A program made the translations under genes and the position numbers. From the sequence record NC_048731.1: 64,000 bases of DNA. One strand, given 5' to 3'. Of the stretch, positions 828 through 52,492 are shown piece by piece (position 1 is the stretch's first letter; the number at the start of each line of letters is the position of its first letter). Under the pieces are notes generated by a model. That model was given only the letters and a program-made list of their open reading frames with translations, searched no databases and had not been told where the DNA came from. The DNA comes from Escherichia phage fp01.

Positions 828-828
828 T
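799..828 (+). promoter_or_regulatory. sigma70-type promoter upstream of DNA polymerase gene
   Basis: 'TTGCTG' + 18 nt + 'TATAAT' followed by AT-rich 'ATATATTGG', same style as other early promoters in the window. Confidence 0.4.
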
Positions 829-889
829 ATATTGGTAAGTTAGAGAAGAAACACTGAAGTTATACTTACTTACCAAGAGGAGATTAAAT

Positions 890-3457: not shown

Positions 3458-3947
3458 TTTCAAATTGCCCGTATATGCTTTACGGGCGTTTGTATCAATT
3501 GAGCAAGAGGGTGATTATTCCGTAATTACAACAAGGTATAATAAATATGTGCTAGATAACAGGAAGTTGCCTGGCACGTTTTCTCAACGTAGGCTTATTC
3601 TATTTGAGAAACGGAAAGAATTACCCTACAAGCTCTACCCTATTAGAGGTAGAATATCAATGTTGTCTCAATTAGTTGGGTCAAAGCGTAGCCAATTTAT
3701 AGATTCTGATGGAAATCTTATTAACTGGAAGAAAACTACATTCTATGATGTTGTCACCTCTAAAGTTTTGCATTCAGCTAGAATTTATAATGGAAAATAC
3801 CAATGCTATGTAGCTAAAGTTCCATACCCATTTGTATTATCCTATGTTCCAGCTTATATAAGCTATATTCTGGTAAATAATAGCCCTGTTATTTACCAAG
3901 TCCATCAAGAGGAGCCTGAAATTCCTAGACTTAGAATAAAATTATGA
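3450..3947 (+). CDS. hypothetical protein (start uncertain; possible internal ATG near 3660)
   Basis: Open frame between polymerase and helicase genes; no recognisable motif. Confidence 0.3.
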   Translation: MLDFKLPVYALRAFVSIEQEGDYSVITTRYNKYVLDNRKLPGTFSQRRLILFEKRKELPYKLYPIRGRISMLSQLVGSKRSQFIDSDGNLINWKKTTFYDVVTSKVLHSARIYNGKYQCYVAKVPYPFVLSYVPAYISYILVNNSPVIYQVHQEEPEIPRLRIKL

Positions 3948-5296
3948 AAGTTGTTATATCTAATAAAGCCTATTTCAAGCCCGATGATGAACTTTGGGAT
4001 TATTGTAGTAAGCAAACCACTTATCACATAGAGACAATGACTAGTAAATACCCTATTATGTATAAGAATAGTGGTGTTGTTGCCAAAGAGATTAAGTGGA
4101 TTCCTATCACTCGTCTAGATTTATTAGATGCTAAAGGAGTAAAATACGAATTAGTCGATAAACGCACATTAGCTCCGGCAGATATACCAAAACCTAAGTT
4201 CAAGCTGCGTGAAGAAGATCAGCTTCCAATATACGAAGAATGCGATGATACCTGTATTATTAATGGTAAGCCTGGATTTGGTAAAACTATCCTAGCCCTT
4301 GCACTTGCGTATAAATTTGGCCAAAAAACTCTGGTAATATGTACGAATACATCCATTCGTGAGATGTGGGCAGCAGAAGTTCGTAAATGGTTTGGGTTTG
4401 AACCGGGTATCATAGGTTCTGGGAAATACAATATTGATCCACCAATTGTAGTCAGTAATATTCAAACAGTGAATAAACATGCGAATAATCTTTCTAAAGT
4501 ATTCGGTACTGTTATAGTTGATGAAGTTCACCATTGTGTGGCTACAACTTTCACTAACTTCCTAGAAATATCATGTGCTCGCTATAAGATTGGACTATCC
4601 GGTACATTAAAAAGAAAAGATGGTCTACAAGTTATGTTCAAAGATTTCTTTGGATATAAGATTTTTAGCCCACCGGTTAATAATACTGTTGCACCTACAA
4701 TCCATAGGTACTCTGTACCTGTTGAGTTATCAGGAAATCAGAATGTGCCATGGGCATTACGTGCTAATGATGTGTACAATCATCCTGAGTATCGAGAAAC
4801 TATTATAAACCTAGCACATTTATATGTGAATATGGGGCATAAAGTACTCATTGTAAGCGATAGAACAGAGTTAATCCAAACAGTACTAGAAGCTCTTGCA
4901 CAGCGTGGTGTTACAACTTATGAAATTATAGGGGCAACCCACTTAGATGACCGATTAAAAATCCAGGAAGATATAGCAAAAGGTGGACCTTGTGTACTTG
5001 CAGCAGCTCAGAGTATCTTCTCTGAAGGTATTTCCCTTAATGAGCTATCTTGTTTAATAATGGGAAGTCTTATTAATAATGAATCTCTCATTGAACAGCT
5101 TGCAGGACGTGTTCAACGTATTGTCGATGGTAAACTCGACCCTATTGTTGTAGATCTAATCATGAAAGGTGGTACTGGGCTAAGACAGGCTTCTGGACGT
5201 ATGGCAGTATATCGTAACAACGGGTGGAAAACTATTACCACGACTCCGGAGAAAGCAGTTCAATTAGCTAAAATTGCATTTGGCAACAGCTCATAA
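3944..5296 (+). CDS. SF2 DNA helicase (T5 D10-like)
   Basis: Walker A 'NGKPGFGKT', Walker B/DEAH-like 'VDEVHH', later 'SGT' and Q/R-rich helicase motifs; ATG at 3944 overlaps the upstream stop. Confidence 0.7.
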   Translation: MKVVISNKAYFKPDDELWDYCSKQTTYHIETMTSKYPIMYKNSGVVAKEIKWIPITRLDLLDAKGVKYELVDKRTLAPADIPKPKFKLREEDQLPIYEECDDTCIINGKPGFGKTILALALAYKFGQKTLVICTNTSIREMWAAEVRKWFGFEPGIIGSGKYNIDPPIVVSNIQTVNKHANNLSKVFGTVIVDEVHHCVATTFTNFLEISCARYKIGLSGTLKRKDGLQVMFKDFFGYKIFSPPVNNTVAPTIHRYSVPVELSGNQNVPWALRANDVYNHPEYRETIINLAHLYVNMGHKVLIVSDRTELIQTVLEALAQRGVTTYEIIGATHLDDRLKIQEDIAKGGPCVLAAAQSIFSEGISLNELSCLIMGSLINNESLIEQLAGRVQRIVDGKLDPIVVDLIMKGGTGLRQASGRMAVYRNNGWKTITTTPEKAVQLAKIAFGNSS

Positions 5297-5308
5297 ATGA
5301 TGTATAAT
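5280..5308 (+). promoter_or_regulatory. sigma70 promoter (T5 early type)
   Basis: 'TTGGCA' + 17 nt + 'TATAAT', followed by 'ATATACATAAATTTGAGAGAG', which resembles the downstream region of the classical T5 PN25 promoter as I recall it. Confidence 0.45.
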
Positions 5309-5379
5309 ATATACATAAATTTGAGAGAGAAAGTTTCGGATTGATAAGAAAGTCCGAAGCAGAAAAATAAAAATTTTAG

Positions 5380-5409
5380 TTGCTAAATTCTCTCGAAATC
5401 TAGTATAAT
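5380..5409 (+). promoter_or_regulatory. sigma70 promoter (T5 early type), tandem copy
   Basis: 'TTGCTA' + 18 nt + 'TATAAT' followed by 'ATATACATAAATTCGAGGAG'; near-duplicate of the promoter at 5280-5308. Confidence 0.45.
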
Positions 5410-5793
5410 ATATACATAAATTCGAGGAGAAAACAAAAATTAAATTCTTCGATTATGAAAAGCTATACTTACTAGCTAGAGGAAATTCCGACCTAATTAT
5501 TAAGCTATTCAAAAGAATGCTTACAGAGCCTGATGCTCACCAACTATTGGTCGGTTCCTCATTCATTTTGAATGAATCAACTATTGTTGATAATCCAAAT
5601 AAATTGTCTAATAGACAACTGGCAGAATATCTAGGAATTTTAAGTCTACGAAATTATGCCGAATACAAGTTTACAAACGATCCTAGTTTGGACATGCAAT
5701 ATGTTCCAGTATGGATACCACGTTTAGTAATCGACACTAACCCACTAATCGCAATTAACAAATCGAAATTAATCTTTAAAGAGGAAATAAAAT

Positions 5794-6567
5794 ATGGCTA
5801 AGTCTTGGGGCGAAACTACTGGCGGTTCTAACGATAAAATCGAATTCCTGAAGTTCAACAACGGTATCACTCGTGTTCGTATCGTTTCTGGTGTTCTTCC
5901 ACGTTATGTCTATTGGCTGACTAATAAAGAGGGTAACGTAGCTCCTTTTGAATGTCTCCGTTTTAACCGTGACAAAGAGAGCTTTGTTCGTGGTAAAGCT
6001 GATCCAGTTCATGAGATGGGCTTCTTCGAGAAAGAGCTGGATAAAGATGGTAATCGTGTTCCGCTGAAACCGAAGAAAAACTATATCGCTTTTGTTATTG
6101 ACCGTTCTGATAACAAACTGAAAGTAATGGAAGTCAAGGCTACTATTCTGAAAGGCATCCAGTCTATCATGAAGCAGCTGAGCCTGGCAACTCCGTTTGA
6201 TATTGATATTTCTATCGAGAAAAAAGGTAAAGGTTTCGATACTGAGTATGATGTACAGCAGATTGCTGCTATGCAGTTCCAGATTAAGCTGCAAGATCCT
6301 AACAGTGCGGAATCTAAGCAATATGCTGCGGATGTCGATCTGATCGGTGAAGCTATGTGTGATGAAGATGGCGACATCATTAAGTTCGAAAAAGTTCCTT
6401 CTCTGGAACAAACCTATCCGGTTCCTACCTATGAAGAGCAGAAAGAAGCAATTCAAGCCTTCATGGAGGGTCGTGAGAATAAAGATGATGATGCCAAATC
6501 TGGTAATAGCAATGCAGGCTCCCAGAAAGGTATTGACTCAGAAGCTGCAAGCGATCTGGACGACTAA
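5794..6567 (+). CDS. abundant early protein with acidic C-terminal tail, possibly ssDNA-binding protein
   Basis: Strong RBS 'AAAGAGGAAATAAAATATG'; codon usage visibly biased toward major E. coli codons; C-terminus 'DSEAASDLDD' is SSB-like; followed by a strong terminator. Function is inference. Confidence 0.55.
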   Translation: MAKSWGETTGGSNDKIEFLKFNNGITRVRIVSGVLPRYVYWLTNKEGNVAPFECLRFNRDKESFVRGKADPVHEMGFFEKELDKDGNRVPLKPKKNYIAFVIDRSDNKLKVMEVKATILKGIQSIMKQLSLATPFDIDISIEKKGKGFDTEYDVQQIAAMQFQIKLQDPNSAESKQYAADVDLIGEAMCDEDGDIIKFEKVPSLEQTYPVPTYEEQKEAIQAFMEGRENKDDDAKSGNSNAGSQKGIDSEAASDLDD

Positions 6568-6574
6568 TAAATAG

Positions 6575-6598
6575 AGGGGCTTCGGCCCCTTTCTTTTT
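6575..6598 (+). terminator. rho-independent terminator
   Basis: Hairpin 'AGGGGC-TTCG-GCCCCT' (UUCG tetraloop) followed by 'TTCTTTTT'. Confidence 0.7.
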
Positions 6599-6603
6599 AA
6601 CCA

Positions 6604-7581
6604 ATGAGAATATTATTTAGTGCTGATCATCATATCAAACTAGGACAAGATAAAGTTCCAAAGGAATGGCAGAAGCGTCGCTTCCTGATGCTAGGAGAAC
6701 GGTTAAATGATATATTCCATAATCATAACTGTGATCTTCATATTGCTGGTGGTGATATACTTGATGTTGCCGACCCGTCGTCAGAAGAAATAGAACTGCT
6801 TGAACAGTTCATGTCAAGACTTGACCATCCAGGCAAAATCTTTACTGGAAATCATGAAATGTTAACTAAAACCATTTCATGTCTATATCATTATGCAGGA
6901 GTTATTAATAAAGTAACGAGCGGGAAGTGGGAAGTAATTACCAAACCATATCGTTCCCCTGAATTTGATATTGTTCCATATGACGAAATCCATAAATCTA
7001 AGTGGAAACCATCTGAATCAAAACTATGTTTCACGCATGTTCGTGGTGAAATCCCTCCACATGTAAAACCAGAAATTGATCTAACTAAGTATAACTGTTA
7101 TGATACTGTAATTGCTGGCGATTTACATTCTTATACTAATAGCCAGACTATCGGATCTACTAGACTTCTCTACCCAGGGTCTCCATTAACTACATCGTTC
7201 CATAGAGAACGCACAAAAGGTACAAATGGTTGTTTTATCGTTGATACCGACACATTAAAAGTAGAATGGATTGAACTCGGTGATTTACCACAACTGATTC
7301 GTAAAACAATCGGAGCCGGTGAAGAGATGGAACCTAGTGATTATGATCGTGTAGTATATGAAGTTACTGGTGACGTTGTTCAATTAAAGTCAATCAAAGA
7401 CTCTGATTTATTAGATAAGAAGATTAACCATCGAGTTACTAAAGACGCTAAGTTAAATCTTGTCGATCTTGATATGTTAGGTGAACTTGAACTTTACTTC
7501 CGTGAAGTCGAGAAGCTATCTCAAGGCGACATTGATAGAATCTTGGCTAGAGCTGCGAAATATGTCAAAGATTACAATTAA
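6604..7581 (+). CDS. Mre11/SbcD-like metallophosphatase nuclease (T5 D13-like)
   Basis: Calcineurin-like phosphoesterase motifs 'ADHH', 'GGDILD', 'TGNHE'. Confidence 0.75.
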   Translation: MRILFSADHHIKLGQDKVPKEWQKRRFLMLGERLNDIFHNHNCDLHIAGGDILDVADPSSEEIELLEQFMSRLDHPGKIFTGNHEMLTKTISCLYHYAGVINKVTSGKWEVITKPYRSPEFDIVPYDEIHKSKWKPSESKLCFTHVRGEIPPHVKPEIDLTKYNCYDTVIAGDLHSYTNSQTIGSTRLLYPGSPLTTSFHRERTKGTNGCFIVDTDTLKVEWIELGDLPQLIRKTIGAGEEMEPSDYDRVVYEVTGDVVQLKSIKDSDLLDKKINHRVTKDAKLNLVDLDMLGELELYFREVEKLSQGDIDRILARAAKYVKDYN

Positions 7582-9400
7582 GACACTAAAATTTAGTAAC
7601 GTTATGTCTTACGGTAAGGACATCGTAATTCATTTCGATAAGAATCCAGTTACTCAACTAATTGGTGGCAATGGGCTAGGGAAATCCACTATTGCTACTG
7701 TTATTGAAGAATTGTTTTATAACAAGAACTCACGGGGTATTAAGAAGGACGCCCTGTTCTCTTGGTCTACTCCGAAAAAAGAGTATGATATGCACGCTTA
7801 CTTCTCGAAAGATGAAGATGAGTATGAATTGCATAAAGTAGTTAAATCAACTGCTAAAGTAACTCTTATTAAGAATGGAGAAGATATTAGTGGCCACACG
7901 GCAACTCAAACATACAAGATGATTGAAGAGATTATGGGTGGTGACTTCCAAACATTCACCAAACTAATTTATCAATCAGTGGGTTCCAATCTAGACTTTC
8001 TAAAAGCAACAGATGCAACACGTAAGGCTTTTCTTGTCAACTTGTTCAATCAAGAACAGTATAAAGAAATGTCAGAAACTATTAAGGCTGACCGTAAAGA
8101 AATAGCAAATACCTTAAATAATTTGCAGGGCCAAATGGCTGTAATTACGAAGATCCTTAATGGAAAGAATAATCTGGGAACTTTGCAGGAACCTGTAGAA
8201 GTACCGGAGTTTGATGAAGAGCCATTAGCACAAGAACTTACTGAATCGAAAATTAAGGCGGCATTAGCCAAGTCTCAAGAGGCTAATATTACTAAATTGC
8301 GTAATTTGGACAAAGCTGTACAAGTTGCCGAACAATCTTTCGAACCTTTCAAAAATTTGCCCGCGCCTACTGACCAAAACGAAGAGATCTCAAGTGTTAC
8401 GCGTGACCTAACGATTGTGACCTCACGTGCGGGAGAAGTTAAGAAACGTTATCAGAAGTTCAAGCAAGAGGCTTCAAATACTGAATGTCCTACTTGTGGT
8501 ACTCATCTGGATACAACTGCTGCTCAAAAAGCAATGGATATGGCTAGAATAGAATATGACCCTCTGTTCAAAGAGAAGCAATCTCTTGAAGCTAAGCTAG
8601 AACAGTTGAAGAAAGAACAACTTGAGTACGTTGCGTATACTAGAGCAAAGGATGCTTTGGATAAAGCAGTGGCAGCTAGAGACGAGTTCAAAAATTCAAT
8701 GAGTGACGCCTCTTTTGAAGAACTCAATGTGCAAAACCTACAGGTGCAAATCCGACAACTAGAACAGGAAATAGCTGATGGCCGTTCTAAGGTTGCAATT
8801 GCCAAAGAGCATAATGCAAATGTCGAATTAGCCAATGCAAAATATAAAGCGAAACTAGAACAGATTGAGAAAGCTGAGGCAGAAATGTCTGAGATTACTT
8901 CCAAACTGGATGAAGTATCAGAAGCTGTTTCTGATCTAGATATTCTGATTGCTGCATTGAAAAATCTGGTAGGGTATAAACTAGAACATAGCGTGAAAGT
9001 ATTTGAAGAGCTTATCAATAAATACCTTTCCATTATGACTGGCGGTAAGTTCGCACTTGGATTTGAACTTGATGAAACAAAATTACAAGTAGTAATCTTC
9101 AATGATGGAAACCGTACTAGTATGGAGAATTGCTCTACTGGTCAGCAAAGTCGAATCAACCTAGCAACTCTGTTAGCTATTCGAATGCTACTAACATCTA
9201 TTAGTAAAGTTAATATTAATCTTCTATTCCTTGATGAAGTAATTAGCTTTATTGATACGAAAGGACTTGACACCCTTGTTGAATTATTAAATGAGGAAGA
9301 AAGTCTAAATTCTATCATTGTTTCTCATGGGCATACGCATCCATTGGCCCATAAGATTACTGTCAAAAAAGATGCAGAAGGATTTTCCTACTTAGAATAA
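7562..9400 (+). CDS. Rad50/SbcC-like ATPase (T5 D12-like)
   Basis: Walker A 'GGNGLGKST', long coiled coil with zinc-hook-like 'CPTCG', ABC signature 'STGQQSRINLA', Walker B 'LLFLDEV'. Likely start is ATG at 7562 (MSKITIK), not 7481. Confidence 0.75.
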   Translation: MSKITIKTLKFSNVMSYGKDIVIHFDKNPVTQLIGGNGLGKSTIATVIEELFYNKNSRGIKKDALFSWSTPKKEYDMHAYFSKDEDEYELHKVVKSTAKVTLIKNGEDISGHTATQTYKMIEEIMGGDFQTFTKLIYQSVGSNLDFLKATDATRKAFLVNLFNQEQYKEMSETIKADRKEIANTLNNLQGQMAVITKILNGKNNLGTLQEPVEVPEFDEEPLAQELTESKIKAALAKSQEANITKLRNLDKAVQVAEQSFEPFKNLPAPTDQNEEISSVTRDLTIVTSRAGEVKKRYQKFKQEASNTECPTCGTHLDTTAAQKAMDMARIEYDPLFKEKQSLEAKLEQLKKEQLEYVAYTRAKDALDKAVAARDEFKNSMSDASFEELNVQNLQVQIRQLEQEIADGRSKVAIAKEHNANVELANAKYKAKLEQIEKAEAEMSEITSKLDEVSEAVSDLDILIAALKNLVGYKLEHSVKVFEELINKYLSIMTGGKFALGFELDETKLQVVIFNDGNRTSMENCSTGQQSRINLATLLAIRMLLTSISKVNINLLFLDEVISFIDTKGLDTLVELLNEEESLNSIIVSHGHTHPLAHKITVKKDAEGFSYLE

Positions 9401-9403
9401 AAC

Positions 9404-9886
9404 ATGGCTGTAGATAGTAGAGAGAAAGGTAAACGTGGTGAATATCAGGTAAGAGATATTCTACGTGAGCGTACAGGTCTTGAGTGGGAACGTGTTCCTG
9501 GCTCTGGTGCTTTTGGCCAGAGCCACGGACTAAAAGGTGACATCTACCTTCCACCACAAAGCGGACACATTAGTAGATACTGCTTCGAAGTTAAGTGGTA
9601 TAAAGATGATAATATATCAAGTAATTTATTTAATGTTGGTGAATCCACTCTAGAGAAGTGGTGGCAGCAGTGCTCACGTGAAGGTGAGCAAATGAACTCC
9701 AAACCTGCATTAATATTCAAAAAAGACAGAGGACAGTGGTTAATAGCTTTGGATAGCTCAGACCCGATGGTTGACAACTTAATGAGTCGTACCCATATGG
9801 TGTTAAATAAGAAAGACATGGAAATCGTAATTGGTTTATTTGAGCCGTGGCTACATCATGCATCTGTTGAGGACTTAATTAAATAA
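9404..9886 (+). CDS. hypothetical protein, possible PD-(D/E)xK-type nuclease
   Basis: Candidate 'GDIYL...FEVKWYK' D...ExK arrangement; placed between SbcC-like and flap endonuclease genes. Weak. Confidence 0.4.
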   Translation: MAVDSREKGKRGEYQVRDILRERTGLEWERVPGSGAFGQSHGLKGDIYLPPQSGHISRYCFEVKWYKDDNISSNLFNVGESTLEKWWQQCSREGEQMNSKPALIFKKDRGQWLIALDSSDPMVDNLMSRTHMVLNKKDMEIVIGLFEPWLHHASVEDLIK

Positions 9887-10761
9887 TGAGTAAATCCTGG
9901 GGAAAATTTATTGAAGAAGAGGAAGCTGAAATGGCTTCCCGTCGTAACCTAATGATTGTCGATGGAACTAACTTAGGCTTTCGCTTCAAGCATAACAATA
10001 GTAAAAAACCATTTGCCTCAAGTTATGTTTCCACTATTCAGTCTCTTGCAAAATCTTATTCTGCTAGAACTACAATAGTTTTAGGAGATAAGGGGAAGTC
10101 TGCATTCCGCTTAGAGCATTTACCTGAGTATAAGGGTAATCGAGATGAGAAATACTCTCAGCGTACGGAAGAGGAGAAAGCGTTAGATGAGCAGTTCTTC
10201 GAGTATTTGAAAGATGCTTTCGAATTATGTGAAACTACGTTCCCAACTTTCACTATTCGTGGTGTAGAAGCAGACGACATGGCAGCTTATATTGTTAAGC
10301 TCATCGGGCATCTATATGATCATATTTGGCTAATTTCTACCGATGGTGACTGGGATACTTTATTAACTGATAAAGTATCTCGCTTCTCTTTCACAACACG
10401 TCGTGAATATCATCTTCGTGATATGTATGAGCATCATAATGTTGACGATGTAGAGCAGTTTATCTCCCTGAAAGCAATTATGGGTGATTTAGGGGATAAT
10501 ATCCGAGGTGTTGAAGGTATTGGGGCAAAGCGTGGGTATAATATTATTCGTGAATTTGGTAACGTTCTGGATATTATTGATCAGCTTCCACTGCCTGGAA
10601 AACAGAAATATATACAGAATTTAAATGCTTCGGAAGAATTGCTTTATCGAAACCTAATTCTGGTTGATTTACCTACCTACTGTGTGGATGCTATTGCTGC
10701 TGTAGGTCAAGATGTATTAGATAAATTTACAAAAGATATTTTGGAGATTGCAGAACAATGA
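9886..10761 (+). CDS. flap endonuclease / 5'-3' exonuclease (T5 D15-like, 291 aa)
   Basis: N-terminus 'MSKSWGKFIEEEEAEMASRRNLMIVDGTNLGFRF' and overall sequence match what I recall of T5 5'-exonuclease; conserved acidic clusters 'VDGTN', 'GVEADD', 'STDGDWD'. Confidence 0.85.
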   Translation: MSKSWGKFIEEEEAEMASRRNLMIVDGTNLGFRFKHNNSKKPFASSYVSTIQSLAKSYSARTTIVLGDKGKSAFRLEHLPEYKGNRDEKYSQRTEEEKALDEQFFEYLKDAFELCETTFPTFTIRGVEADDMAAYIVKLIGHLYDHIWLISTDGDWDTLLTDKVSRFSFTTRREYHLRDMYEHHNVDDVEQFISLKAIMGDLGDNIRGVEGIGAKRGYNIIREFGNVLDIIDQLPLPGKQKYIQNLNASEELLYRNLILVDLPTYCVDAIAAVGQDVLDKFTKDILEIAEQ

Positions 10762-11204
10762 TTAAAATTAAATTAACTCATCCAGATTGTATGCCTAAGA
10801 TTGGTTCCGAAGATGCTGCAGGTATGGATCTGCGAGCATTCTTTGGTACTAACCCTGCTGCAGATTTACGTGCTATTGCACCAGGCAAATCCCTAATGAT
10901 TGACACCGGTGTCGCGGTGGAAATTCCGCGAGGTTGGTTCGGTTTGGTAGTTCCTCGTAGCTCTTTAGGTAAGCGTCATTTGATGATTGCAAATACCGCG
11001 GGAGTGATTGACTCAGACTATCGTGGAACTATTAAGATGAACCTGTTCAACTACGGTTCTGAAATTCAAACTCTGGAAAATTTTGAAAGACTTTGTCAGC
11101 TGGTAGTAGTACCACACTACTCAACTCATAATTTTGAAATTGTTGACGAACTAGGGGAGACTGATCGTGGAGAGGGTGGCTTTGGAAGTTCGGGAAGTAA
11201 ATAA
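10758..11204 (+). CDS. dut: dUTP pyrophosphatase
   Basis: dUTPase motifs 'AGMDLRA', 'VPRSSLG', 'GVIDSDYRGT', 'RGEGGFGSSG'. Confidence 0.85.
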   Translation: MIKIKLTHPDCMPKIGSEDAAGMDLRAFFGTNPAADLRAIAPGKSLMIDTGVAVEIPRGWFGLVVPRSSLGKRHLMIANTAGVIDSDYRGTIKMNLFNYGSEIQTLENFERLCQLVVVPHYSTHNFEIVDELGETDRGEGGFGSSGSK

Positions 11205-11228
11205 TCTACATATCAAATAAATAATAAA

Positions 11229-11260: not shown

Positions 11261-13389
11261 TATTGAGGTACTATCTGTACCTTTAATTGCTTGAGTTCTT
11301 CTTCTAAGTCTTCAATCCTTTTAATAAGATCTTGAACAACATGCATAGTATCAAGAAGCATTGGAGTTGTATCAAGTTCTTTTTGTTCCTGTTCTGCCCC
11401 ATTGTTATCATAGAATTTTCTAGTTTTAACATAAAGCGGTTCTATAACTTCTGTTTCCTGAGCGATAACACCTCGTCTTATACGTTGAAGATTATCGTTA
11501 TTATATATGAATGTCACAAAGTTTAGATTTTTGATGTTTTCTAAAGCTTTTTCAACAGTTGTATTTTCTATAGAATGTTTAAGGCGCCTATCTGAAGTTG
11601 CATTCTTTTGTAAAGTGTATGTTTCTTCTGATCCTGGTTGCCATTTGTGGAAAAAAATATCGGAATTTAATGGTTGAATACCGACACGAACTCCATAAGC
11701 GTTATTAGCATCGCCAGCAATATGCCATACGGATTGTGCAAAAGATGTTCCGTTGTGATGAATCATCCCCCAGTGACACGAAGTCTTATAACCACCTTGA
11801 CTAGATTGGGCACCACTAAGAAGACTATTAAAAGCGTAATTTGCTCCAATAGCCTGGTCTTCCGCGCTAAATGTACCTTTAGTAAAACCTGTTTCACTCC
11901 AAGCCATCATAGTCCCATATCTTGCTCTATATCGATCGCTACTCAGCGTACCTGTGTCATCAAAGGCAAGGTCTTTTGTCACCCCTTTTGTCTTGTTGTA
12001 TACAGACAGAATCGCATAATAAAGGCCATCCATGTATGCATCGCATCGCAATCCTGCATCCGCTTCAACAACGGTGCCGATTTTGTATTGGGCCTTTACC
12101 TGTCCTGACAATGCCTTTACGCCAGAGCCTGGGCGGACAGCATCAGCATTCATTACACTCCAAGACGTATTCGCGGCAACAAAGCCACCAGAGGCACGAA
12201 TCACCCAAACGCCGACAAAGTTGCGCGGAACGATTTCTGCTGCTGAACGACCATAAACAGGACTGCAGCGAGAAGCGTCAAAGTTGGTTTGTATGTACCT
12301 TGAACCAGAGCCAACCGCAGCAGGAGCGTCCCCCGAAGTTATCGACTGAAAAGCACCGTTAGTTGCCACTTGGCTTGCTAAAGAAGCCAATGTCACCATT
12401 GTGTGCGGCGCTGCGTAAGTTATATTTGGAGCGCCTGATTCAGACACAACCCCGTTGGACGATGAATTCCCGCCGTCACCCCTGCCAAATAAGGCCTGTA
12501 TGGAACCAGTTTGAACACCGTTCCTGTCAGGCACTCGAAACGTTGTTGTTCCGTTACCCAAAGAATATTTACCACGCTTTGATGCGTCAGCAAGCCATTC
12601 CGCATCTGAAATCGGCGTAAGCATTTGCGCATATGCCCAAAGCTCAGGCCAGTCAGCCCTGTTAAGAAGCTGCCCATCAGAAACCACCTCATACGGTTGA
12701 ATATACGCACGGCTATCTCGAAGATGGAAATCACCGACACCGTAGTTCATCACGCCATTCATTGTGGGTCCTACTGTGCCAGTATTAATTTTGTTCTCCA
12801 CCCAACGCTTAGTTACAGCATCATAATCATTAACGGGGTCTCCCGCAAGGGGGGTAGATCCAATAGGACGAACATTTAACCACGCAGCTGCGCGATCTGC
12901 TAAATCTGATAAATTATTTTCAGTCAATAGGCTTTCGTCTTTTGTTGGCACATTATAACTTTGTCTAAAAGCTTCTTTTGATACTACTCCAGTACCCCCT
13001 TGTTCTATAGAAAGTGCAGTGGTTAAACCTGTTAAAGATTTAATAGTTGAGTTGGCACCATCCATGTCTATACTAGCAAATCTTGACCATGCAGTCCATG
13101 AACTGTAAAAAGATCTACTATATATCTCATTACTATTATAAGGTAAGTAAATTTGAGTACAAGAAGTTGCTAAATTGCTTGCATTATTTTTTAAAACTAG
13201 TAATGTACCTGCAGCCGCAACAGGATAGTTAAGAGAAGTAGGAGAGTTAGCATTTTCAGATTGCCAATACTTTCCATACACACTCCCATCAAGTGTATTT
13301 AAATTTGTTCCTGTAGTAATTAAACCATATACAGGTAAAGCGGCTACATCAGTAGCCTTTAAGTTAATTTTATCAATTCTAAGAGCCAT
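11260..13389 (-). CDS. L-shaped tail fibre distal protein with C-terminal intramolecular chaperone (auto-cleaving) domain
   Basis: C-terminal ~110 aa ('KHSIENTTVEKALENIKNLNFVTF...EDLEEELKQLKVQ') resembles the S74-type chaperone domain found at the end of T5 pb1 and other phage fibres; body is Gly/Ser/Thr-rich. Confidence 0.65.
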   Translation of the reverse strand: MALRIDKINLKATDVAALPVYGLITTGTNLNTLDGSVYGKYWQSENANSPTSLNYPVAAAGTLLVLKNNASNLATSCTQIYLPYNSNEIYSRSFYSSWTAWSRFASIDMDGANSTIKSLTGLTTALSIEQGGTGVVSKEAFRQSYNVPTKDESLLTENNLSDLADRAAAWLNVRPIGSTPLAGDPVNDYDAVTKRWVENKINTGTVGPTMNGVMNYGVGDFHLRDSRAYIQPYEVVSDGQLLNRADWPELWAYAQMLTPISDAEWLADASKRGKYSLGNGTTTFRVPDRNGVQTGSIQALFGRGDGGNSSSNGVVSESGAPNITYAAPHTMVTLASLASQVATNGAFQSITSGDAPAAVGSGSRYIQTNFDASRCSPVYGRSAAEIVPRNFVGVWVIRASGGFVAANTSWSVMNADAVRPGSGVKALSGQVKAQYKIGTVVEADAGLRCDAYMDGLYYAILSVYNKTKGVTKDLAFDDTGTLSSDRYRARYGTMMAWSETGFTKGTFSAEDQAIGANYAFNSLLSGAQSSQGGYKTSCHWGMIHHNGTSFAQSVWHIAGDANNAYGVRVGIQPLNSDIFFHKWQPGSEETYTLQKNATSDRRLKHSIENTTVEKALENIKNLNFVTFIYNNDNLQRIRRGVIAQETEVIEPLYVKTRKFYDNNGAEQEQKELDTTPMLLDTMHVVQDLIKRIEDLEEELKQLKVQIVPQ

Positions 13390-27208: not shown

Positions 27209-28618
27209 TTAGCCACCAGAACTAGTAACTGTAATGCTCTTAGTACCTTCTACACCAGAACCATCTTTAGCAACAGCTTTAACAGTAACCTCTCCAGTCT
27301 TAGTAGTATCCGCAGTTAATAGACCAGATTCTGGATCAATTGTAGCTGCATCACCACTAGAAATAGACCAAGTTACAGCACTATTAGTAGCGTCAGGCGG
27401 AGTTACTTCAACAGACATCTGTAAAGTATTGCTATTCTCCACTGAAGTGACATTACCAGCAGATTTAACTGTGATTGATTCAACTAGTTTTGGTGGAGTT
27501 TTAGCGCCATCTCCTGTAGCAATCAGATTAGCCACAGTGGTTTTAGTATACTTGTTAGAGAAACCAAGATAACCCTCATCACCCGTATCCAAATCTGTAG
27601 GGATAGCTTTAAACTCTACTGAAGTACCAAGTACATCATCAGTCTCAATAGTAGGAATGTTAACATGCGCCTGTTTAGCAACTAACACAGCTGCCGGACG
27701 TTCATCATCGTATTCACCACCAAGGATAAGTGCAATCTCAAACTTGTTAACTACCTTAAGAGTTTTAATTAGATCTTTATATAGCTCCATAGATCCTAGA
27801 GCTTTATCGTTAAGGTAAGCTGTCAGAGAACCAGTTAGTTCAAATGCGCCAGTAAATGAACCGATCGGAATATTTACACGGGACATAATATTCGGGGTTA
27901 GATACGTGATGTTATTATTAATGGTGAAAGTACCACCAGTAATAGGGATATCATATGCCTTATCAGAATCCATATCCTTAATTTTCAGGATAGTCAATTT
28001 GTTCTTGATATAAGAACTCTGAATAGTCATATAAGTTTCATCATCAATACCTACCTCATCTGGATCAAATGGTTGCGCATCCAGAGGAATAAGCTGATTA
28101 CCATTACCAGACCAAGTTACACGACCAATATCCTCAATATCAACGTTAACTTCTGCCTGGTTGATCTGGCAAGAGTCGATGTAACTCCATGCTTTGTCAG
28201 TCAGGATGTAGATATGCAGCATTGCCAGTTCGTGGTACGCGTTATCTTTAAAGTTAACCATAAAATTGGTTTCGTTATTATGTGCTCCTGTATCACCTTC
28301 TAGGTTAAGAGCTTTACCACTAGAAAGAGCATGCCATAACATATAGTCAGGGACAATCTGTTTGTTAGTAGTTTTATCTTTATATGGCAGGATATAAGTA
28401 GAGAAACTCCACTCAGCCGCGTTTAAAGAGTCGTTAAAACGTTTAGAACCACGAGTTGGACGCGGACCAGCTTCATTAACAGTAATATCTGTTGAGTTAC
28501 TGTCCTGACCCCAAGAAATATCATCCTGAACTAGAATCTCTTGCGTGTTGGTCTTATCATGACCAGTCTTAACCGTAGACACGAAGATTCGAGTATTACG
28601 TAATAGTTGTAAAGACAT
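27209..28618 (-). CDS. major tail tube protein with C-terminal Ig-like domain (T5 pb6-like)
   Basis: 469 aa; C-terminal ~90 aa 'ITVKSAGNVTSVENSNTLQMSVEVTPPDATNSAVTWSISSGDAATIDPESGLLTA...' is BIG2/Ig-like. Confidence 0.7.
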   Translation of the reverse strand: MSLQLLRNTRIFVSTVKTGHDKTNTQEILVQDDISWGQDSNSTDITVNEAGPRPTRGSKRFNDSLNAAEWSFSTYILPYKDKTTNKQIVPDYMLWHALSSGKALNLEGDTGAHNNETNFMVNFKDNAYHELAMLHIYILTDKAWSYIDSCQINQAEVNVDIEDIGRVTWSGNGNQLIPLDAQPFDPDEVGIDDETYMTIQSSYIKNKLTILKIKDMDSDKAYDIPITGGTFTINNNITYLTPNIMSRVNIPIGSFTGAFELTGSLTAYLNDKALGSMELYKDLIKTLKVVNKFEIALILGGEYDDERPAAVLVAKQAHVNIPTIETDDVLGTSVEFKAIPTDLDTGDEGYLGFSNKYTKTTVANLIATGDGAKTPPKLVESITVKSAGNVTSVENSNTLQMSVEVTPPDATNSAVTWSISSGDAATIDPESGLLTADTTKTGEVTVKAVAKDGSGVEGTKSITVTSSGG

Positions 28619-34750: not shown

Positions 34751-36067
34751 TTATTTACCACGGGAAATAGAGTAAATTCCATAGCGCAGAGCATCACAAA
34801 GGTGAGAGTTAGCATCATGACGTGGTTTTTCACGTGATAATTTCTCTTCGCCTTCTTGGAAATCCCACTTGTAGTTCTGCAATGCATGGATTAATGAAGA
34901 GCATGAAGCGTCTACAATAATCTTACCCTGTTGGAATAGTGCTTGTAAACATGCTAATCCATCTAGGACAGATTTTTTAGCTGGAGCTGATGCAATTTCA
35001 TGTTCGTAAGCTAAGTCCTGGCGGAACTGAGCTGCCGCGGAATCAACGAAGATACGATCTACGTTATAACGATCTATACAGTGCTGAATATACGCAGCAT
35101 GCTGAGCTGTAGTTTTCTCTGCCTGCTGGTACTCTTCTAATACATAGTAAGTATCTGTATCATAATGATACTTGATAGTAAGAACTGCTGTAGGATCACG
35201 ATAACCAACGTCAATGCCAAGCAATGTTTCGAATGCTTCATCATCTTTAAAGAAGTGACGCATACCTTTAAGGTCTTTAACATGATCGATAGCATTAAAG
35301 GTATCAAAGATCTGACCTTCGAATACAGAGAAGTCAGCCTCATATTCCTGACGGAAGTAGTTTTTACTAACAGTACGACGTGCTTCTTCGATGTCATTCA
35401 GGTCAGCACGTGGATTATCACGATATGTACCATGAATAGACACCCAGTTAGGTAATGTATCATCAAATCCATAGGCATAAAACTCTTTAAACCAGTTACC
35501 ACCACGAGGAGTAGAGATAAATAGAGCCTTAGAATTAGGTTTATCTAGAGTAGGGCGCAGCTGAACCCTAAAGGCATCACCACCCACATCGGAAATTGCC
35601 GCCTCGTCAAAGATGATAAAATCATATGAACGTCCAACTGCGGAGTCCGCCTGAGCCGCAGAAGCTAGTTTAAATAGAGAACCATTAGCTAACTCAATCT
35701 CTTTATCTTTAGCATTCTCACGTTCAGTTTGCAACCCATACTTCTTAATAAGACCACGAATCTGAGACCATCCGATATTGGCCAGTGAGTAGTTAGGGGC
35801 AACTACTAGCACCTTCACATTAGGTTCCAGCAATTTTAGGAACCCAAGTGTATATGCTATAAAGGATTTGCCTACACGACGTGACACACACGCCGTTACA
35901 AAACGATGTCTAGGGTCCTCTAAAGCATTAATAATTGCTATTTGAGGACCATTAGGTGTAATACCTTCTTGCGCTAGTATTCCTGAAACCGGTAGACGAA
36001 AGAAACGTTTGTCTATTCCGAAATCAATAACATCTACTGTATTAACGTAGGGTCTTGATACTTCCAT
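34751..36067 (-). CDS. terminase large subunit
   Basis: Walker A-like 'SRRVGKSF', Walker B 'DFIIFDEAA', C-terminal RNaseH-like nuclease acidic residues; 438 aa. Confidence 0.85.
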   Translation of the reverse strand: MEVSRPYVNTVDVIDFGIDKRFFRLPVSGILAQEGITPNGPQIAIINALEDPRHRFVTACVSRRVGKSFIAYTLGFLKLLEPNVKVLVVAPNYSLANIGWSQIRGLIKKYGLQTERENAKDKEIELANGSLFKLASAAQADSAVGRSYDFIIFDEAAISDVGGDAFRVQLRPTLDKPNSKALFISTPRGGNWFKEFYAYGFDDTLPNWVSIHGTYRDNPRADLNDIEEARRTVSKNYFRQEYEADFSVFEGQIFDTFNAIDHVKDLKGMRHFFKDDEAFETLLGIDVGYRDPTAVLTIKYHYDTDTYYVLEEYQQAEKTTAQHAAYIQHCIDRYNVDRIFVDSAAAQFRQDLAYEHEIASAPAKKSVLDGLACLQALFQQGKIIVDASCSSLIHALQNYKWDFQEGEEKLSREKPRHDANSHLCDALRYGIYSISRGK

Positions 36068-36549
36068 TACTTCTTACCTCCAGTAGCTAGGGAAGTAATT
36101 AAGTCCATGTAGTTTTGATCCCCAGCTCCAGCAATAATATTATTCTGGATGTTGGTCTGATTGGCTGGAGTACGGGCTGCTGCCTTCACTTTCTCCAGTT
36201 CTACCATCATTTTCATTTCTTCCATCTTCATCTTGTGTGCCTTCCAGAGAATATCCATAATATCCTGGTCAGAACCCATGCCGGTTTCTTCTAGCTCCTC
36301 TAGTTTACGCTTGATAACTTCATCCAGAACACCAAATAAACGATCTCTGTTACGGAAACCACTCTCCATAAAAATATCATTTAAGTAGTTCTTAACTTCA
36401 CTACGATTCATAATATCTCGAAAAGCAATTTCGGACATCCCAAGACTACGTGCGGCAGAAGGCACATCGCTGCCGCACTGTAAATAAGCTTCAATCACAT
36501 CCATCCCTTCAGGGGACATAAGATCTGGTACTAATACATCATTTGCCAT
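36067..36549 (-). CDS. terminase small subunit (putative)
   Basis: 160 aa immediately upstream of and coupled to the large subunit gene. Confidence 0.5.
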
Positions 36550-39077: not shown

Positions 39078-39322
39078 TGTTTAGTATTATAATTGCTTTT
39101 ATTATCGGGATACTCGCGGGAGTTTTCGGGACGACTGCGGCAATCAACAAGCATCGTAAATATATTGCGGGAGTGACGCGGGAGATTGCGGAAAGGGAGC
39201 GGAAGTTTGACGAGAAACGTGCGGAGTTTGAGCGAGAGTGGTCGGATGGATCTCGGGCGTCGCGGAAGAGATTCCGTGAGTTCAGGCCAGAACACAGGTT
39301 TGATGACCCTTCTATGCGCTAA
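39077..39322 (+). CDS. small membrane protein with charged C-terminal tail (81 aa)
   Basis: N-terminal TM helix 'MFSIIIAFIIGILAGVFG', Arg/Glu-rich tail. Confidence 0.4.
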   Translation: MFSIIIAFIIGILAGVFGTTAAINKHRKYIAGVTREIAERERKFDEKRAEFEREWSDGSRASRKRFREFRPEHRFDDPSMR

Positions 39323-39436
39323 TTTGACTTTTGCCAAATTTCATAAGATTACACATGGAGGTGTGCCCAGTGGGTTGGGGGAGAATACTTAGTCTGCTAA
39401 CCGCCACCCCCGTTACTATTACCTTGCTAACTGTTT

Positions 39437-42773: not shown

Positions 42774-43181
42774 TTATTCACCTGCGGCCTGTTTTACTTC
42801 ATCGGCAACGCCTAACAACTGCGCCACGGCGTCCAGCGTTTCCAGTTTCGCGCTTTCAAGGCTTGCCAGATCATCGGCGTCTTTGATAATGCCGGAATCA
42901 ATAGCGTGTTTTGCAATTACTCGCACATAATGAGCCTTGCGGATTGAACTGCCGCCGCCAACTTTGCGCGGCTTATCGCTTTTTTGATAGGCTTTCGCGC
43001 TGGTCAATTTTGAGCGAACGGATACGGGAGAAGTCGCGCCCACTGCCTTTGCAATCTCTTTCAGGCCGTCGCTATTTGCAAATTCTAAACCGTTTTCGTT
43101 GATTAACTGCTGATACAGGGTAACAGCTTTTTGGGTGTTGTCTTCATTCCAAGTGAATTTTGCGGTTTTTGCGTTAGTCAT
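42774..43181 (-). CDS. hypothetical pre-early protein (A2-sized, possibly DNA-binding)
   Basis: 135 aa, Lys/Ala-rich; upstream of the A1-like gene in the same operon; leader 'TTAAATTAATTGGAGTTT'. Identity with T5 A2 is a guess from order and size. Confidence 0.3.
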   Translation of the reverse strand: MTNAKTAKFTWNEDNTQKAVTLYQQLINENGLEFANSDGLKEIAKAVGATSPVSVRSKLTSAKAYQKSDKPRKVGGGSSIRKAHYVRVIAKHAIDSGIIKDADDLASLESAKLETLDAVAQLLGVADEVKQAAGE

Positions 43182-49158: not shown

Positions 49159-49360
49159 CCGCGCCCGCGATGGTTAGCCTGCTAATGGTTAGGGTGTTAC
49201 GTGTCGCCTTGTGTGATCGTTAGCGAGCTAACTAATTTTCAAGCCTCCTCCAATTTTGCCCTTGTTTTAGTATCCCCACCAAAATTAAACGCGTTAGAAT
49301 GCGTTTGAGGGCGTTTTAGCGGTATATTAGAATTATTCACTGCGTAGGAATACTGTATAT

Positions 49361-49460
49361 TTATCCAGTAGGATAAGCTGTGGATAAGTCTGTTGATAAC
49401 GCTTCAAAACGGCTAGGATTTTGTCAAGTCAAATCGTGCTGTTGATAAGTCTGGGGATAA
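49361..49460. promoter_or_regulatory. cluster of DnaA-box-like 9-mers
   Basis: 'TGTGGATAA' (perfect complement of TTATCCACA) plus 'TGTTGATAA' x2, 'TGGGGATAA', 'TTATCCAGT' within ~100 bp. Confidence 0.6.
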
Positions 49461-49485
49461 CTTAAATAATAGTGTTTCTCACTTC

Positions 49486-49740
49486 CGTTCTTAAATGCGA
49501 ATCATTATCATTTGCATTCCACTTCCTGAATAAGAATCATTCCACTATCTAAACGATAATCATTCCACTTCCTGAATAATAATCATTCCACTATCTAAAT
49601 AAGAATCATTCCACTATCTAAACGATAATCATTCCACTTTTTAAATGAGATTGATTCTCATTCCACTTTCTAAATGCGAATTATTATCATTCGCATTCCG
49701 CTTTTTAAATGAGAATGATTCTTATTATCATTCGTATTTA
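49486..49740. repeat. tandem iteron-like ~23-bp repeats
   Basis: About 8 head-to-tail units of 'CATTCCACT(A/T)(T/C)CT(A/G)AA(T/C)(A/G)A(T/G)AAT' with variants. Confidence 0.8.
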
Positions 49741-49762
49741 GCGCAGAGCAATTGCTCTGCGC
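49741..49762. repeat. perfect 22-nt palindrome followed by T-run
   Basis: 'GCGCAGAGCA-ATT-GCTCTGCGC' then 'TTTTGTG'; could act as a terminator or protein site. Confidence 0.8.
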
Positions 49763-49765
49763 TTT

Positions 49766-50369
49766 TGTGCAAAACCGACATTGCTCCACGGGTGTTACGT
49801 GCGGGCGTATGTGCAAATCCGACAGGATTTTTGGTAGTGTGCAAATCCGACCCGAAAAATTTTTATAGTGTGCGAATCCGACAATGAATTTTTCCAAAAA
49901 CTCCAGCAATCCGATGCTGCGCATCAATCCTGTGGAATTAACTAGAATATGTGCAAATCCGACATGAGTTTATTTGTGCGAATCCGACAAGATTTTTGTG
50001 ACTTCGATTGGAGGGTGTGTGATTGTGTGGGTTTGGGGAGAAGTTGAGAGAGCGAGGGAAAATTAGGGGAGAAGCTAGAGAGGCGCATGTTTGGTGCGGG
50101 GGCACCCGATTTGCGGGGATTTTGGGGAAGAGTTGAGAAGATTTGGGTTAATTTGAGATTAGTGGAGATAAAGTAAAATTTTATTAGCTAAATGGGGCAA
50201 AATAGCTTGACAAGTGAAAATTCTTGTGGCTCTAAAAACTCAGGCAATCATGGGCCTTCGGCCCGAAATAATGCTGCCATTTTCAAGAGATTATGTGTCC
50301 ATGAAAACTTAGGCAATTGTGCAAATCCGACCATAAATTTCTAGAAACACAATGTGCAAATCCGACAGT
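49766..50369 (+). repeat. eight dispersed direct copies of a 14-nt motif
   Basis: 'GTGC(A/G)AA(A/T)CCGAC(A/C)' at ~49767, 49811, 49840, 49871, 49950, 49977, 50320, 50353, all on the same strand. Confidence 0.8.
50000..50200 (+). repeat. purine-rich G-tract region with 3 copies of 'GGGGAGAAG(T/C)TGAGAG'-like unit
   Basis: Strong G+A skew on plus strand; G-runs 'GGG','GGGG','GGGGG' spaced by short linkers. Confidence 0.7.
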
Positions 50370-51877: not shown

Positions 51878-52492
51878 TTAGCTACCTCTCTTATCCTCGT
51901 CGATAACAGCTCCCAACGCCTCCATAATAGCATCTTCTAAGCTTCCATGCTTACTAGGATTATTAAAATGAATAGTACAAACAGAACTCCTAGAAACTCC
52001 AGCATCCGCAGGTGCTACGCTTCGCATATCAGATTCAAAAGCTTCTTGAGTATGTTTCAGCTGTACAGAAGGGCCGTAGTCTTCACCAAACTTATATGAC
52101 TGCGTACTACTTACCACACCCCCACAAGGAACATTGTGCATATCCGACATTAATCTTTTATCGGAGTTATTCAGCATTGAGATTGTCCCTGACTGCCACG
52201 GATCTCTAATAGTCACTGGAGTACTGGGGCGATTCACCTCGGTCTTCACAAGTTTGTACCCTGCATCGATTAATGCGTTAATTAGATTATCAGCCGGGAT
52301 GCGAGCCTTGCCAAAAATCTTACGAGCATCTTCGAGCTTATCCTCAAGATCTTTACATGCTCTAAGGTCATTGTGTGCAAATGTTAGCTTCATAGATTTG
52401 AATTGTACAGTAGCAGTTAAATCTTTAAAGCTATAATCCCATGTGTTCAGTTCATGATCTGGTACTACTTGAATAGGTTGTTGTGTAAACAT
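51878..52492 (-). CDS. hypothetical early protein (204 aa)
   Basis: ORF. Confidence 0.5.
   Translation of the reverse strand: MFTQQPIQVVPDHELNTWDYSFKDLTATVQFKSMKLTFAHNDLRACKDLEDKLEDARKIFGKARIPADNLINALIDAGYKLVKTEVNRPSTPVTIRDPWQSGTISMLNNSDKRLMSDMHNVPCGGVVSSTQSYKFGEDYGPSVQLKHTQEAFESDMRSVAPADAGVSRSSVCTIHFNNPSKHGSLEDAIMEALGAVIDEDKRGS

Follow-up and report, generated by a model that had tools for sequence, protein, structure and literature searches.

What is the array of short direct repeats for that lies in non-coding DNA beside the terminal repeat of T5-like phages? That T5 injects its DNA in two steps has been known for more than 50 years, and the literature leaves both the cis-acting signal that stops and restarts transfer and the DNA target of the pre-early protein A2 undefined. 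Here we analyse a 64,000-nt stretch of Escherichia phage fp01 (NC_048731.1, hereafter the window), in which eight such repeats sit in exactly that region. The array is evidently the homologue of the "DRD" direct repeats of T5 "Repeat Region 3", the injection-stop region. It is conserved across the family, straddles the end of the terminal repeat and shares its orientation with every strong copy found elsewhere in the genomes scanned; tentatively, we favour A2 as the protein that would read it.

A motif search of the window finds GTGCAAATCCGACA in eight plus-strand copies with zero or one mismatch, spanning 49767–50367. At up to three mismatches there are 13 matches where 4.0 would be expected, and no shuffle out of 100 had as many, so the same-strand copies picked out by an earlier note on this DNA are real and far above chance. 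The other 63 kb hold only three further copies (8729, 8744 and 52136), all on the plus strand. According to the repeat finder, the start-to-start spacings within the array are 44, 28, 31, 81, 25, 343 and 35, and therefore the 27–31 bp that the note gave as the distance between copies fits only some neighbouring pairs and fails for the rest (25–343). The copies form two clusters, of six and two, with about 330 bp between them. The conserved unit, (A)T-GTGC(A/G)AA(T/A)CCGA(C/T)(A) with a weakly T-rich tail, is slightly longer than the 14-nt motif first noted. Helical phasing, also proposed, is not borne out: 47 spacings below 100 bp from eight phages, which are non-independent data, give a Rayleigh R of 0.24 (p about 0.07). 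Spacing is irregular, at 13–143 nt within clusters, and in some phages copies abut at 13–17 nt.

By blastn, the window maps onto T5 (AY543070) as a circularly permuted assembly in which the terminal repeat (TR) is present once. Window 6–11205 corresponds to 70.2–81.4 kb of T5, the TR starts near window 39364, and the right terminus of T5 (121750 = 10219) aligns to window 50232; the guess of a T5-like genome was correct, and the array region matches about 450–515 T5-like phage records. In T5 the array has nine copies (9753–10491) at spacings of 46, 26, 31, 81, 25, 344, 35 and 137, with one more copy at 12154 and two inside D13, paired at 78936/78951. The window copies have the same sequence, order and orientation as those of T5 and near-identical spacing, and the same neighbours precede them, namely DnaA-box pairs of the IRD'-spacer-IRC' type and AT-rich DRE-type repeats. 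The long stretch that they occupy, at the right TR end, has the rightward pre-early operon on one side and the first of the leftward early genes on the other, and the array is untranslated in the T5 annotation, as had been supposed. In the T5 record, 9140–10149 is further annotated as an "injection stop signal (iss)", 9748/9749 as a major nick in the minus strand and 10219 as the TR end. Given these coordinates, copies 1–6 lie inside both the TR and the annotated iss, and the TR end falls in the large gap of the array.

Davison names the "nine DRD repeats" of Repeat Region 3 without giving them a role, favours the DnaA-box inverted repeats further left (IRD'-IRC'/DRE) as the stop signal, and calculates the shear point of first-step DNA as 9618, which lies about 55 bp left of the first DRD copy after an 80-bp offset between two T5 records. 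Experimental studies of these repeats are said to be lacking in the BF23 genome paper (PMC10644984). In the literature searched, the motif string does not occur and no binding protein for DRD is reported; a search on the T5 terminase and pac, including the cutting of the 10-kb terminal repeats, gave nothing relevant. The array is non-random and was correctly read as a putative directional protein-site array, in that its location, the TR end and the co-orientation of its copies all fit such a role in packaging or injection, but it is an already known feature.

Conservation of the motif extends throughout the family, and the motif is not equally frequent elsewhere in the window. Across 18 aligned relatives, the motif columns are 95% identical to the window, compared with 85% for non-motif columns (Mann-Whitney p = 2.6e-7). 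In close relatives the whole non-coding region is constrained, most of all a block at 50166–50290 around the TR end, of which 50166–50238 is the only DNA that still aligns with Klebsiella Sugarlandvirus phages by blastn. One of these, Klebsiella phage IME260, nevertheless has 11 co-oriented copies of the 14-mer despite a blastn alignment of only 73 bp. The same 13-mer is found in eight copies each in Erwinia phage KEY and in Eos, in at least seven in Pectobacterium DU_PP_V and in about five in Vibrio phage GRLPWR (Thalassavirus), the A1 protein of which is 31% identical. JSF12, another Vibrio phage, has 10 copies in two clusters; its motif variants differ between the clusters at 6589–6743 and 7283–7423, the one on the unique-DNA side having GTGCTAATTCGAT three times and the other GTGCAAAAC(C/T)GA(C/T) about seven times. 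In the Sugarlandvirus, Erwinia, Pectobacterium and Vibrio phages alike, the motif thus outlasts any alignment of its flanks. Four further phages (two Vibrio, one Aeromonas, one Proteus) have diverged versions of it. Written in the T5 orientation, the diverged forms are GTAGAAATTCGAC in Aeromonas AhSzq-1, G(T/C)G(A/C)GAATTAGAC in Proteus phage 1, GTGCGAA.. ending mostly (T/A)A in Vibrio 70E37-4 and D51, and GTGCGAA../GTGCGGA.. ending TCTA in VspSw_1.

The surroundings of the copies are conserved in order as well. T5, the window, IME260, KEY and Eos share one architecture, and GRLPWR and JSF12 keep its main elements. From left to right it consists of AT-rich repeats, a CC(T/C)GCGC nick motif, 2–4 nt, copy 1, a TTAC(G/A) element, the left cluster, G-rich short repeats, a TTGAC...TGTGGCTC^TAAAAAC block, a hairpin and the right cluster. 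The TTAC(G/A) element is clear in the window, T5, IME260, KEY and GRLPWR. The block is recognisable in enterobacterial phages, GRLPWR and JSF12 keeping only its TTGAC start, and the hairpin is present in T5-like phages, KEY and Eos; in the window the hairpin, GGGCCTTCGGCCC at 50252–50264, is fully conserved and about 20 nt right of the TR end. DU_PP_V, compared over a stretch that ends at the block, has the shared parts up to that point, though a nick motif is not clear in it. In all genomes with an annotated or deducible TR end, this end lies in the array gap, with copies to its left and right numbering 6/3 in T5, 6/2 in the window (by homology), 6/1 in phiR2-01, 7/2 in Stitch, 5/6 in IME260 (annotated end) and 4/1+ in GRLPWR. 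No DRD was found at the left TR boundary. Among the elements of the region, DRD stands out in these comparisons as the most sharply conserved short one, and as the only one retained in the form of one 13-mer by most of the genera compared, from Escherichia phages to those of Vibrio.

Outside the array, copies are few and polar. We scanned three whole genomes (T5, KEY and GRLPWR) with a 16-nt weight matrix built from 49 array sites. At a score of at least 16, T5 has three off-array sites (12152, 78934 and 78949), KEY eight and GRLPWR one, against 0.1–0.3 per genome expected from block shuffles. All 12 are co-oriented with the array, in plus- and minus-strand genes alike. A copy to the right of the array, at 52136 in the window, is also present in the corresponding region of T5, phiR2-01 and Stitch. 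A secondary site recurs in the D13–D15 recombination-nuclease block at non-orthologous positions, always in array orientation. In T5 and the window it is a 15-nt pair at about codons 388–398 of D13; in KEY a 15-nt pair (28560–28590) lies over the D13 zinc hook, about 80 codons earlier than the T5 pair, and the weight-matrix scan assigns a two-mismatch match in KEY D13 to this pair; in GRLPWR there are copies in D14 and D15 (37677, 38004). About 360 bp separate the T5 D13 pair from the 64.8% nick. The gene for the UL9-like origin-binding helicase also has a DRD-like site, ATGTGGATAT(T/C)CGACG, weaker but co-oriented, which in T5 (61397) and KEY (46078) falls at the same codon, about 617.

Copy 1 lies within about 4–5 nt of the conserved 7.9% nick site; by homology, the T5 7.9% minus-strand nick maps between window 49762 and 49763. 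The four major T5 nick sites (9748, 22336, 39746 and 78573) all read CC(C/T)GCGC, which goes beyond the published Pu^GCGC, and all carry a (G/A)(A/T)TTAC(G/A)(C/T/G)GTG-like block about 31 nt to the right, so that the nicking signal may be bipartite. This bipartite pattern flanks DRD copy 1 in the window (49757–49801), IME260, KEY, Eos and GRLPWR, and JSF12 has the GCGC half. DRD as a nick-targeting signal was rejected, because three of the four major T5 nicks carry no DRD, which is therefore not needed for nicking. Left of the left TR boundary (window about 39300–39364; T5 111470–111531) is a nick-like sequence, GCGC-N28-ATTACACATG, with the genome terminus 7 nt past it, which suggests that formation of the left end may be related to the nicking signal.

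Further observations concern the DNA between and around the clusters (Table 1). GGGG(A/T)-rich repeats occur in IME260, KEY, Eos, DU_PP_V, GRLPWR and JSF12 at the same place as the G-rich repeats of the window, so that each genus compared has an equivalent. In several relatives, KR233164 (NR01), KX130863 (SHSML-45), NC_100739 (SE3) and PQ002169, the array region aligns in two parts, spaced about 500 bp more widely, between which a gene annotated as a homing/HNH endonuclease is inserted. GRLPWR has, at 12901–13007, two LexA-box-like sequences, CTGTATATTTATACA(G/T), beside two DnaA boxes (AGTTATCCACAAC).

Table 1. Positions in the window of the DRD copies, neighbouring elements and genes of candidate readers.
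Feature	Position	Strand	Basis
Tandem pair of DRD-like sites, 15 nt apart, in D13 (SbcC-like) gene	8729..8757	+	Motif search; encodes NVQNLQVQIRQ
Putative small terminase subunit (T5.156 homologue), rival candidate reader	36067..36549	-	Homology
Gene A2, pre-early DNA-binding protein, candidate motif reader	42774..43181	-	Homology
Paired DnaA-box-like sequences (TGTGGATAA, TGTTGATAA, GGGGATAA), homologous to T5 IRD'-spacer-IRC'	49360..49461		Sequence
AT-rich 23-nt tandem repeats and palindromes (T5 DRE/DRC/pal elements)	49480..49740		Repeat finder
Palindrome AGCGCAGAGCAA/TTGCTCTGCGCT with CTGCGC nick-site homologue	49740..49763		Sequence, T5 homology
DRD copy 1 (GTGCAAAACCGACA), 4 nt right of nick-site homologue	49767..49780	+	Motif search
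TTACGTG, second half of apparently bipartite nick signature, about 31 nt right of GCGC	49795..49801	+	Site comparison
DRD copy 2, exact	49811..49824	+	Motif search
DRD copy 3	49839..49852	+	Motif search
DRD copy 4	49870..49883	+	Motif search
DRD copy 5, exact	49951..49964	+	Motif search
DRD copy 6, last one within TR	49976..49989	+	Motif search, T5 homology
G-rich short repeats (TTTGGGGAGAAG-like), three copies, between left DRD cluster and repeat end	50032..50132	+	Repeat analysis
Most conserved block of the region, TTGACA..ATTCTTGTGGCTC^TAAAAAC, then hairpin; contains right TR end (after 50232, by homology to T5 right terminus)	50166..50290		Alignment of relatives
DRD copy 7, first one outside TR, 87 nt past its end	50319..50332	+	Motif search, T5 homology
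DRD copy 8, exact	50354..50367	+	Motif search
Off-array DRD copy in minus-strand T5.019-like gene	52136..52149	+	Motif search

Which protein, if any, reads these sites? Our tentative preference is that the DRD array may be a set of co-oriented 13–15-bp sites for A2, through which DNA transfer would be restarted. In the literature A2 is a DNA-binding protein that is essential for second-step transfer. First-step transfer would stop just left of the array, for reasons requiring no new protein. A2, made from first-step DNA, would bind the left cluster at the measured first-step end (8.0–8.2% of the T5 genome), probably acting with A1 at the membrane, and successive head-to-tail binding would capture or ratchet the next 0.7 kb or so inward and thereby restart second-step transfer. 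Because the left cluster is inside the TR, a second copy of it lies 250–470 bp from the right genome end, where such binding could draw in, hold or protect the DNA that enters last. A wider version, which we regard with more doubt, would make DRD a family-wide, genome-polar "handle" read by A2, with the array, its right-end duplicate and the sparse other copies, the recurrent D13–D15 pair among them, letting A1/A2 restart and complete transfer. The array, its position, its conservation throughout the family and its polarity over the genome are observed; it is protein binding, A2 as the binder and the ratchet that we infer here; if they are right, DRD would be the first cis-acting partner for A2 and would provide a mechanism for the two-step transfer described in 1968.

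Several observations are consistent with A2 as the reader. The array starts at the measured first-step end and A2 is required in second-step transfer, both of which the model fits, and A2 is present in every family member examined. Its structure, predicted with AlphaFold2 (AF2) from an alignment of database homologues (predicted local distance difference test score, pLDDT, 84), has an N-terminal three-helix domain resembling a helix-turn-helix (HTH), the third helix of which, VSVRSKL, is nearly invariant. Between T5 and GRLPWR, which have the same 13-mer, this HTH segment is about 52% identical and the whole protein 42% (HTH identities, here and for the small terminase subunit below, are our own counts on the alignments). 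In an alignment of 11 phages, R81 of A2 is retained by all eight with a motif ending GA(C/T), whereas the other three, Vibrio phages in which most copies of the motif end otherwise, have P or Q there. At residue 57, S is replaced in just three phages, JSF12 and those of Aeromonas and Proteus, and each of these has an altered motif. Our local copy of Pfam gave no match for A2 or the small terminase subunit; relatives carry the recent family PF26822.

Other points weigh against A2. These taxa form clades, and the covariation therefore amounts to one or two evolutionary events, probably within a single clade, in which almost any protein would partition alike. A Foldseek search of the PDB gave no significant match for A2, the best being HTH folds of Myb, TnpE, TetR and LexA type at E > 0.7. 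The position of the repeat end, always between the clusters, is the most regular feature of the anatomy and is explained more directly by packaging, and the restart model assigns no clear function to the right cluster or to the D13 pair and the other off-array sites. In addition, the comparison of readers covered A2 and the small terminase subunit; D5 and the UL9-like helicase are among the other DNA-binding proteins.

It is possible, though doubtful, that the array instead serves as a pac/cosB-like terminase recognition site. The small subunit would bind both clusters flanking the cut at the right TR end and bend or loop the DNA, thereby placing the large subunit on the TGTGGCTC^TAAAAAC block, which is conserved. 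In every genome with an annotated or inferable TR end, that end is in the gap of the array, and no DNA of the region is better conserved than the block at the cut, the left part of which is all that can be aligned with Sugarlandvirus. The lack of DRD at the left TR boundary is as expected if only the initiation end has a recognition site, and co-orientation throughout the genome suits a one-directional motor. For tailed phages it is established logic that the end injected last is packaged first. The left end of T5 is injected first, and therefore the right end should be packaged first and the recognition site is expected there; repeated sites do adjoin the cut at this presumed initiation end in T5, phiR2-01, Stitch, IME260 and GRLPWR. 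Other phages likewise have repeated sites around a cut, as at P1 pac, SPP1 pacL/pacR, lambda cosB and the T7 SRL/SRR arrays. However, the putative HTH of the small subunit is about 23% identical between T5 and GRLPWR, against 43% for the protein overall, and it differs at most positions among T5, KEY and GRLPWR, despite an identical 13-mer in all three. Hence the predicted DNA-reading part is not conserved where the site is, and the invariant parts of the protein, being invariant in variant-motif phages too, do not track the motif. Moreover, the sites are 87–470 bp from the cut, beyond most known pac/cos distances, and the direction of T5 packaging is inferred. One protein could serve more than one of the roles proposed for the array.

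Less probable is that the array itself is the injection stop signal at about 8%, a roadblock that needs no new protein and consists either of the DNA itself or of a host or virion factor already present. In favour of this, the array is inside or beside the annotated iss and begins at the measured first-step DNA end. The reverse complement of TGTGCAAAT, ATTTGCACA, matches the DnaA box TTWTNCACA at 8 of 9 positions, and true DnaA-box pairs lie 300 bp left of the array. Pauses of ejection in vitro are reported near nick positions, and with one DRD locus 5 bp from the 7.9% nick and another about 360 bp from the 64.8% nick, loci and nicks are inseparable at that resolution. Against a roadblock, part of the array is beyond the stop point, and Davison prefers elements that lie further left, IRD'-IRC'/DRE. 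Vibrio phages have lost the DnaA-like T before GTGC (the base that completes CACA is missing in GRLPWR and JSF12), the 5' half is altered in the Aeromonas phage, and the motif as a whole drifts in Aeromonas, Proteus and some Vibrio phages. Host DnaA boxes stay standard in those Aeromonas and Proteus hosts. A search for host arrays, defined as two spaced copies and made in one genome of each bacterial species, yielded nothing but two T5-like contigs that had been mis-binned and four tandem repeats that are unrelated and have no A1 or A2 genes nearby. The two contigs, both short, SABI01000336 in a Spirochaetia metagenome-assembled genome (MAG) and RZZU01000077 in a Clostridia MAG, are 80–89% identical to T5. 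A host protein such as DnaA was set aside as the reader, given the loss of resemblance in Vibrio phages, the motif drift and the lack of host arrays in that search.

We give little credence to the repeats being replication-origin iterons read by the UL9-like origin-binding helicase of the phage. DnaA boxes, AT-rich 23-nt repeats of the unwinding type and direct repeats adjoin one another in a layout like that of a theta origin, the secondary pair is inside a gene, as with lambda ori, and T5.108 matches Pfam Herpes_ori_bp (E = 1.3e-7). There is also a likeness to box I of herpes simplex virus (HSV) UL9, CGTTCGCACTT, which resembles GGATT(T/C)GCACA, the DRD reverse complement. However, the Pfam match covers the helicase part only and no DNA-binding domain, the spacing (13–143 nt within clusters, unphased) lacks the regular two or so helical turns of 17–22-bp repeats, and co-orientation throughout the genome without a switch point is unlike bidirectional replication. 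Electron microscopy, as cited by Davison, mapped T5 origins near the middle of the genome.

A Chi-like polar signal is just as improbable. It would protect ends, with a nuclease or helicase coming in from the right end as its reader, or mark phage DNA as "self" and so exempt it from A1-dependent degradation. In the three genomes scanned the motif is over-represented and all its strong copies are in one orientation, six of them within 470 bp of the right terminus in the right TR, and the secondary site recurs in the D13–D15 block of T5, KEY and GRLPWR at non-orthologous positions. The case is nevertheless one of analogy only: the 3–8 copies outside the array are too few to protect 110 kb, and nothing lies near the left end, which enters first. 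Some other function altogether is unlikely as well.

A structured or processed RNA, or a CRISPR-like array, can practically be discarded, given that Rfam has no relevant match for the array region, neither strand folds better than shuffles (z = -0.83 and -0.09), the sequence is conserved without a compensatory pattern, and the repeats, as the earlier note saw, are unlike those of CRISPR (13–15 nt, imperfect and irregularly spaced, rather than 23–50 nt, with intervening DNA of 11–329 nt that is conserved between phages). The point in favour of an RNA is that the minus strand carries, at the end of the T5.018-like gene, a strong sigma-70-like promoter (50858 to 50830; 11/12, extended -10 TG) that points leftwards into the non-coding region. 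What is conserved here is sequence, not structure, and the suggestion of a processed RNA was set aside.

The interest of this known repeat family lies in its function and in the features added by comparison. If the DRD-binding protein were named, be it A2, the small terminase subunit or some other protein, what is now a descriptive "complicated repeat region" would become a defined protein-DNA system, and it would also be clear whether the injection stop and restart and the packaging cut share one signal.

Set against known systems, the array has partial likenesses. Chi and KOPS have, like DRD, a strong replicon-wide strand bias independent of gene orientation, but DRD is far less frequent, has one dominant cluster and has no known translocase partner. 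The iterons of plasmid and phage theta origins are co-oriented direct repeats by DnaA boxes and AT-rich DNA, as here, whereas DRD spacing is irregular, no initiator gene is adjacent and no origin is mapped at this place. The P1 pac hexamers, the SPP1 pacL/pacR boxes and the lambda cosB R sites are short repeated protein sites around a packaging-start cut; DRD copies are further from the cut and all direct repeats, and the putative HTH of the T5 small terminase subunit is not co-conserved with them. In T7, a virulent phage that enters in stages, short direct-repeat arrays (SRL/SRR) stand at the terminal-repeat boundary, reportedly described beside the terminal repeats by Dunn and Studier in 1983; these 7-mers differ in sequence from DRD, are present at each of the two boundaries and come from a phage of an unrelated family. 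The T5 DRD repeats themselves (Davison; a 2005 account; Heusterspreute et al. 1987) are homologous DNA, with the same 14-mer, order and orientation and the same neighbours, namely DnaA-box inverted repeats, AT-rich repeats, nick site and repeat end; they differ in numbering nine, the distal ninth being absent from the window, which has eight. The published accounts consulted contain no function, family-wide conservation, repeat-end straddling or polarity. To these accounts we add the straddling of the TR end, the adjacency to the nick site, the family-wide 13-mer, the genome-wide polarity and the recurrent secondary site, together with a tentative function in the restart of DNA transfer.

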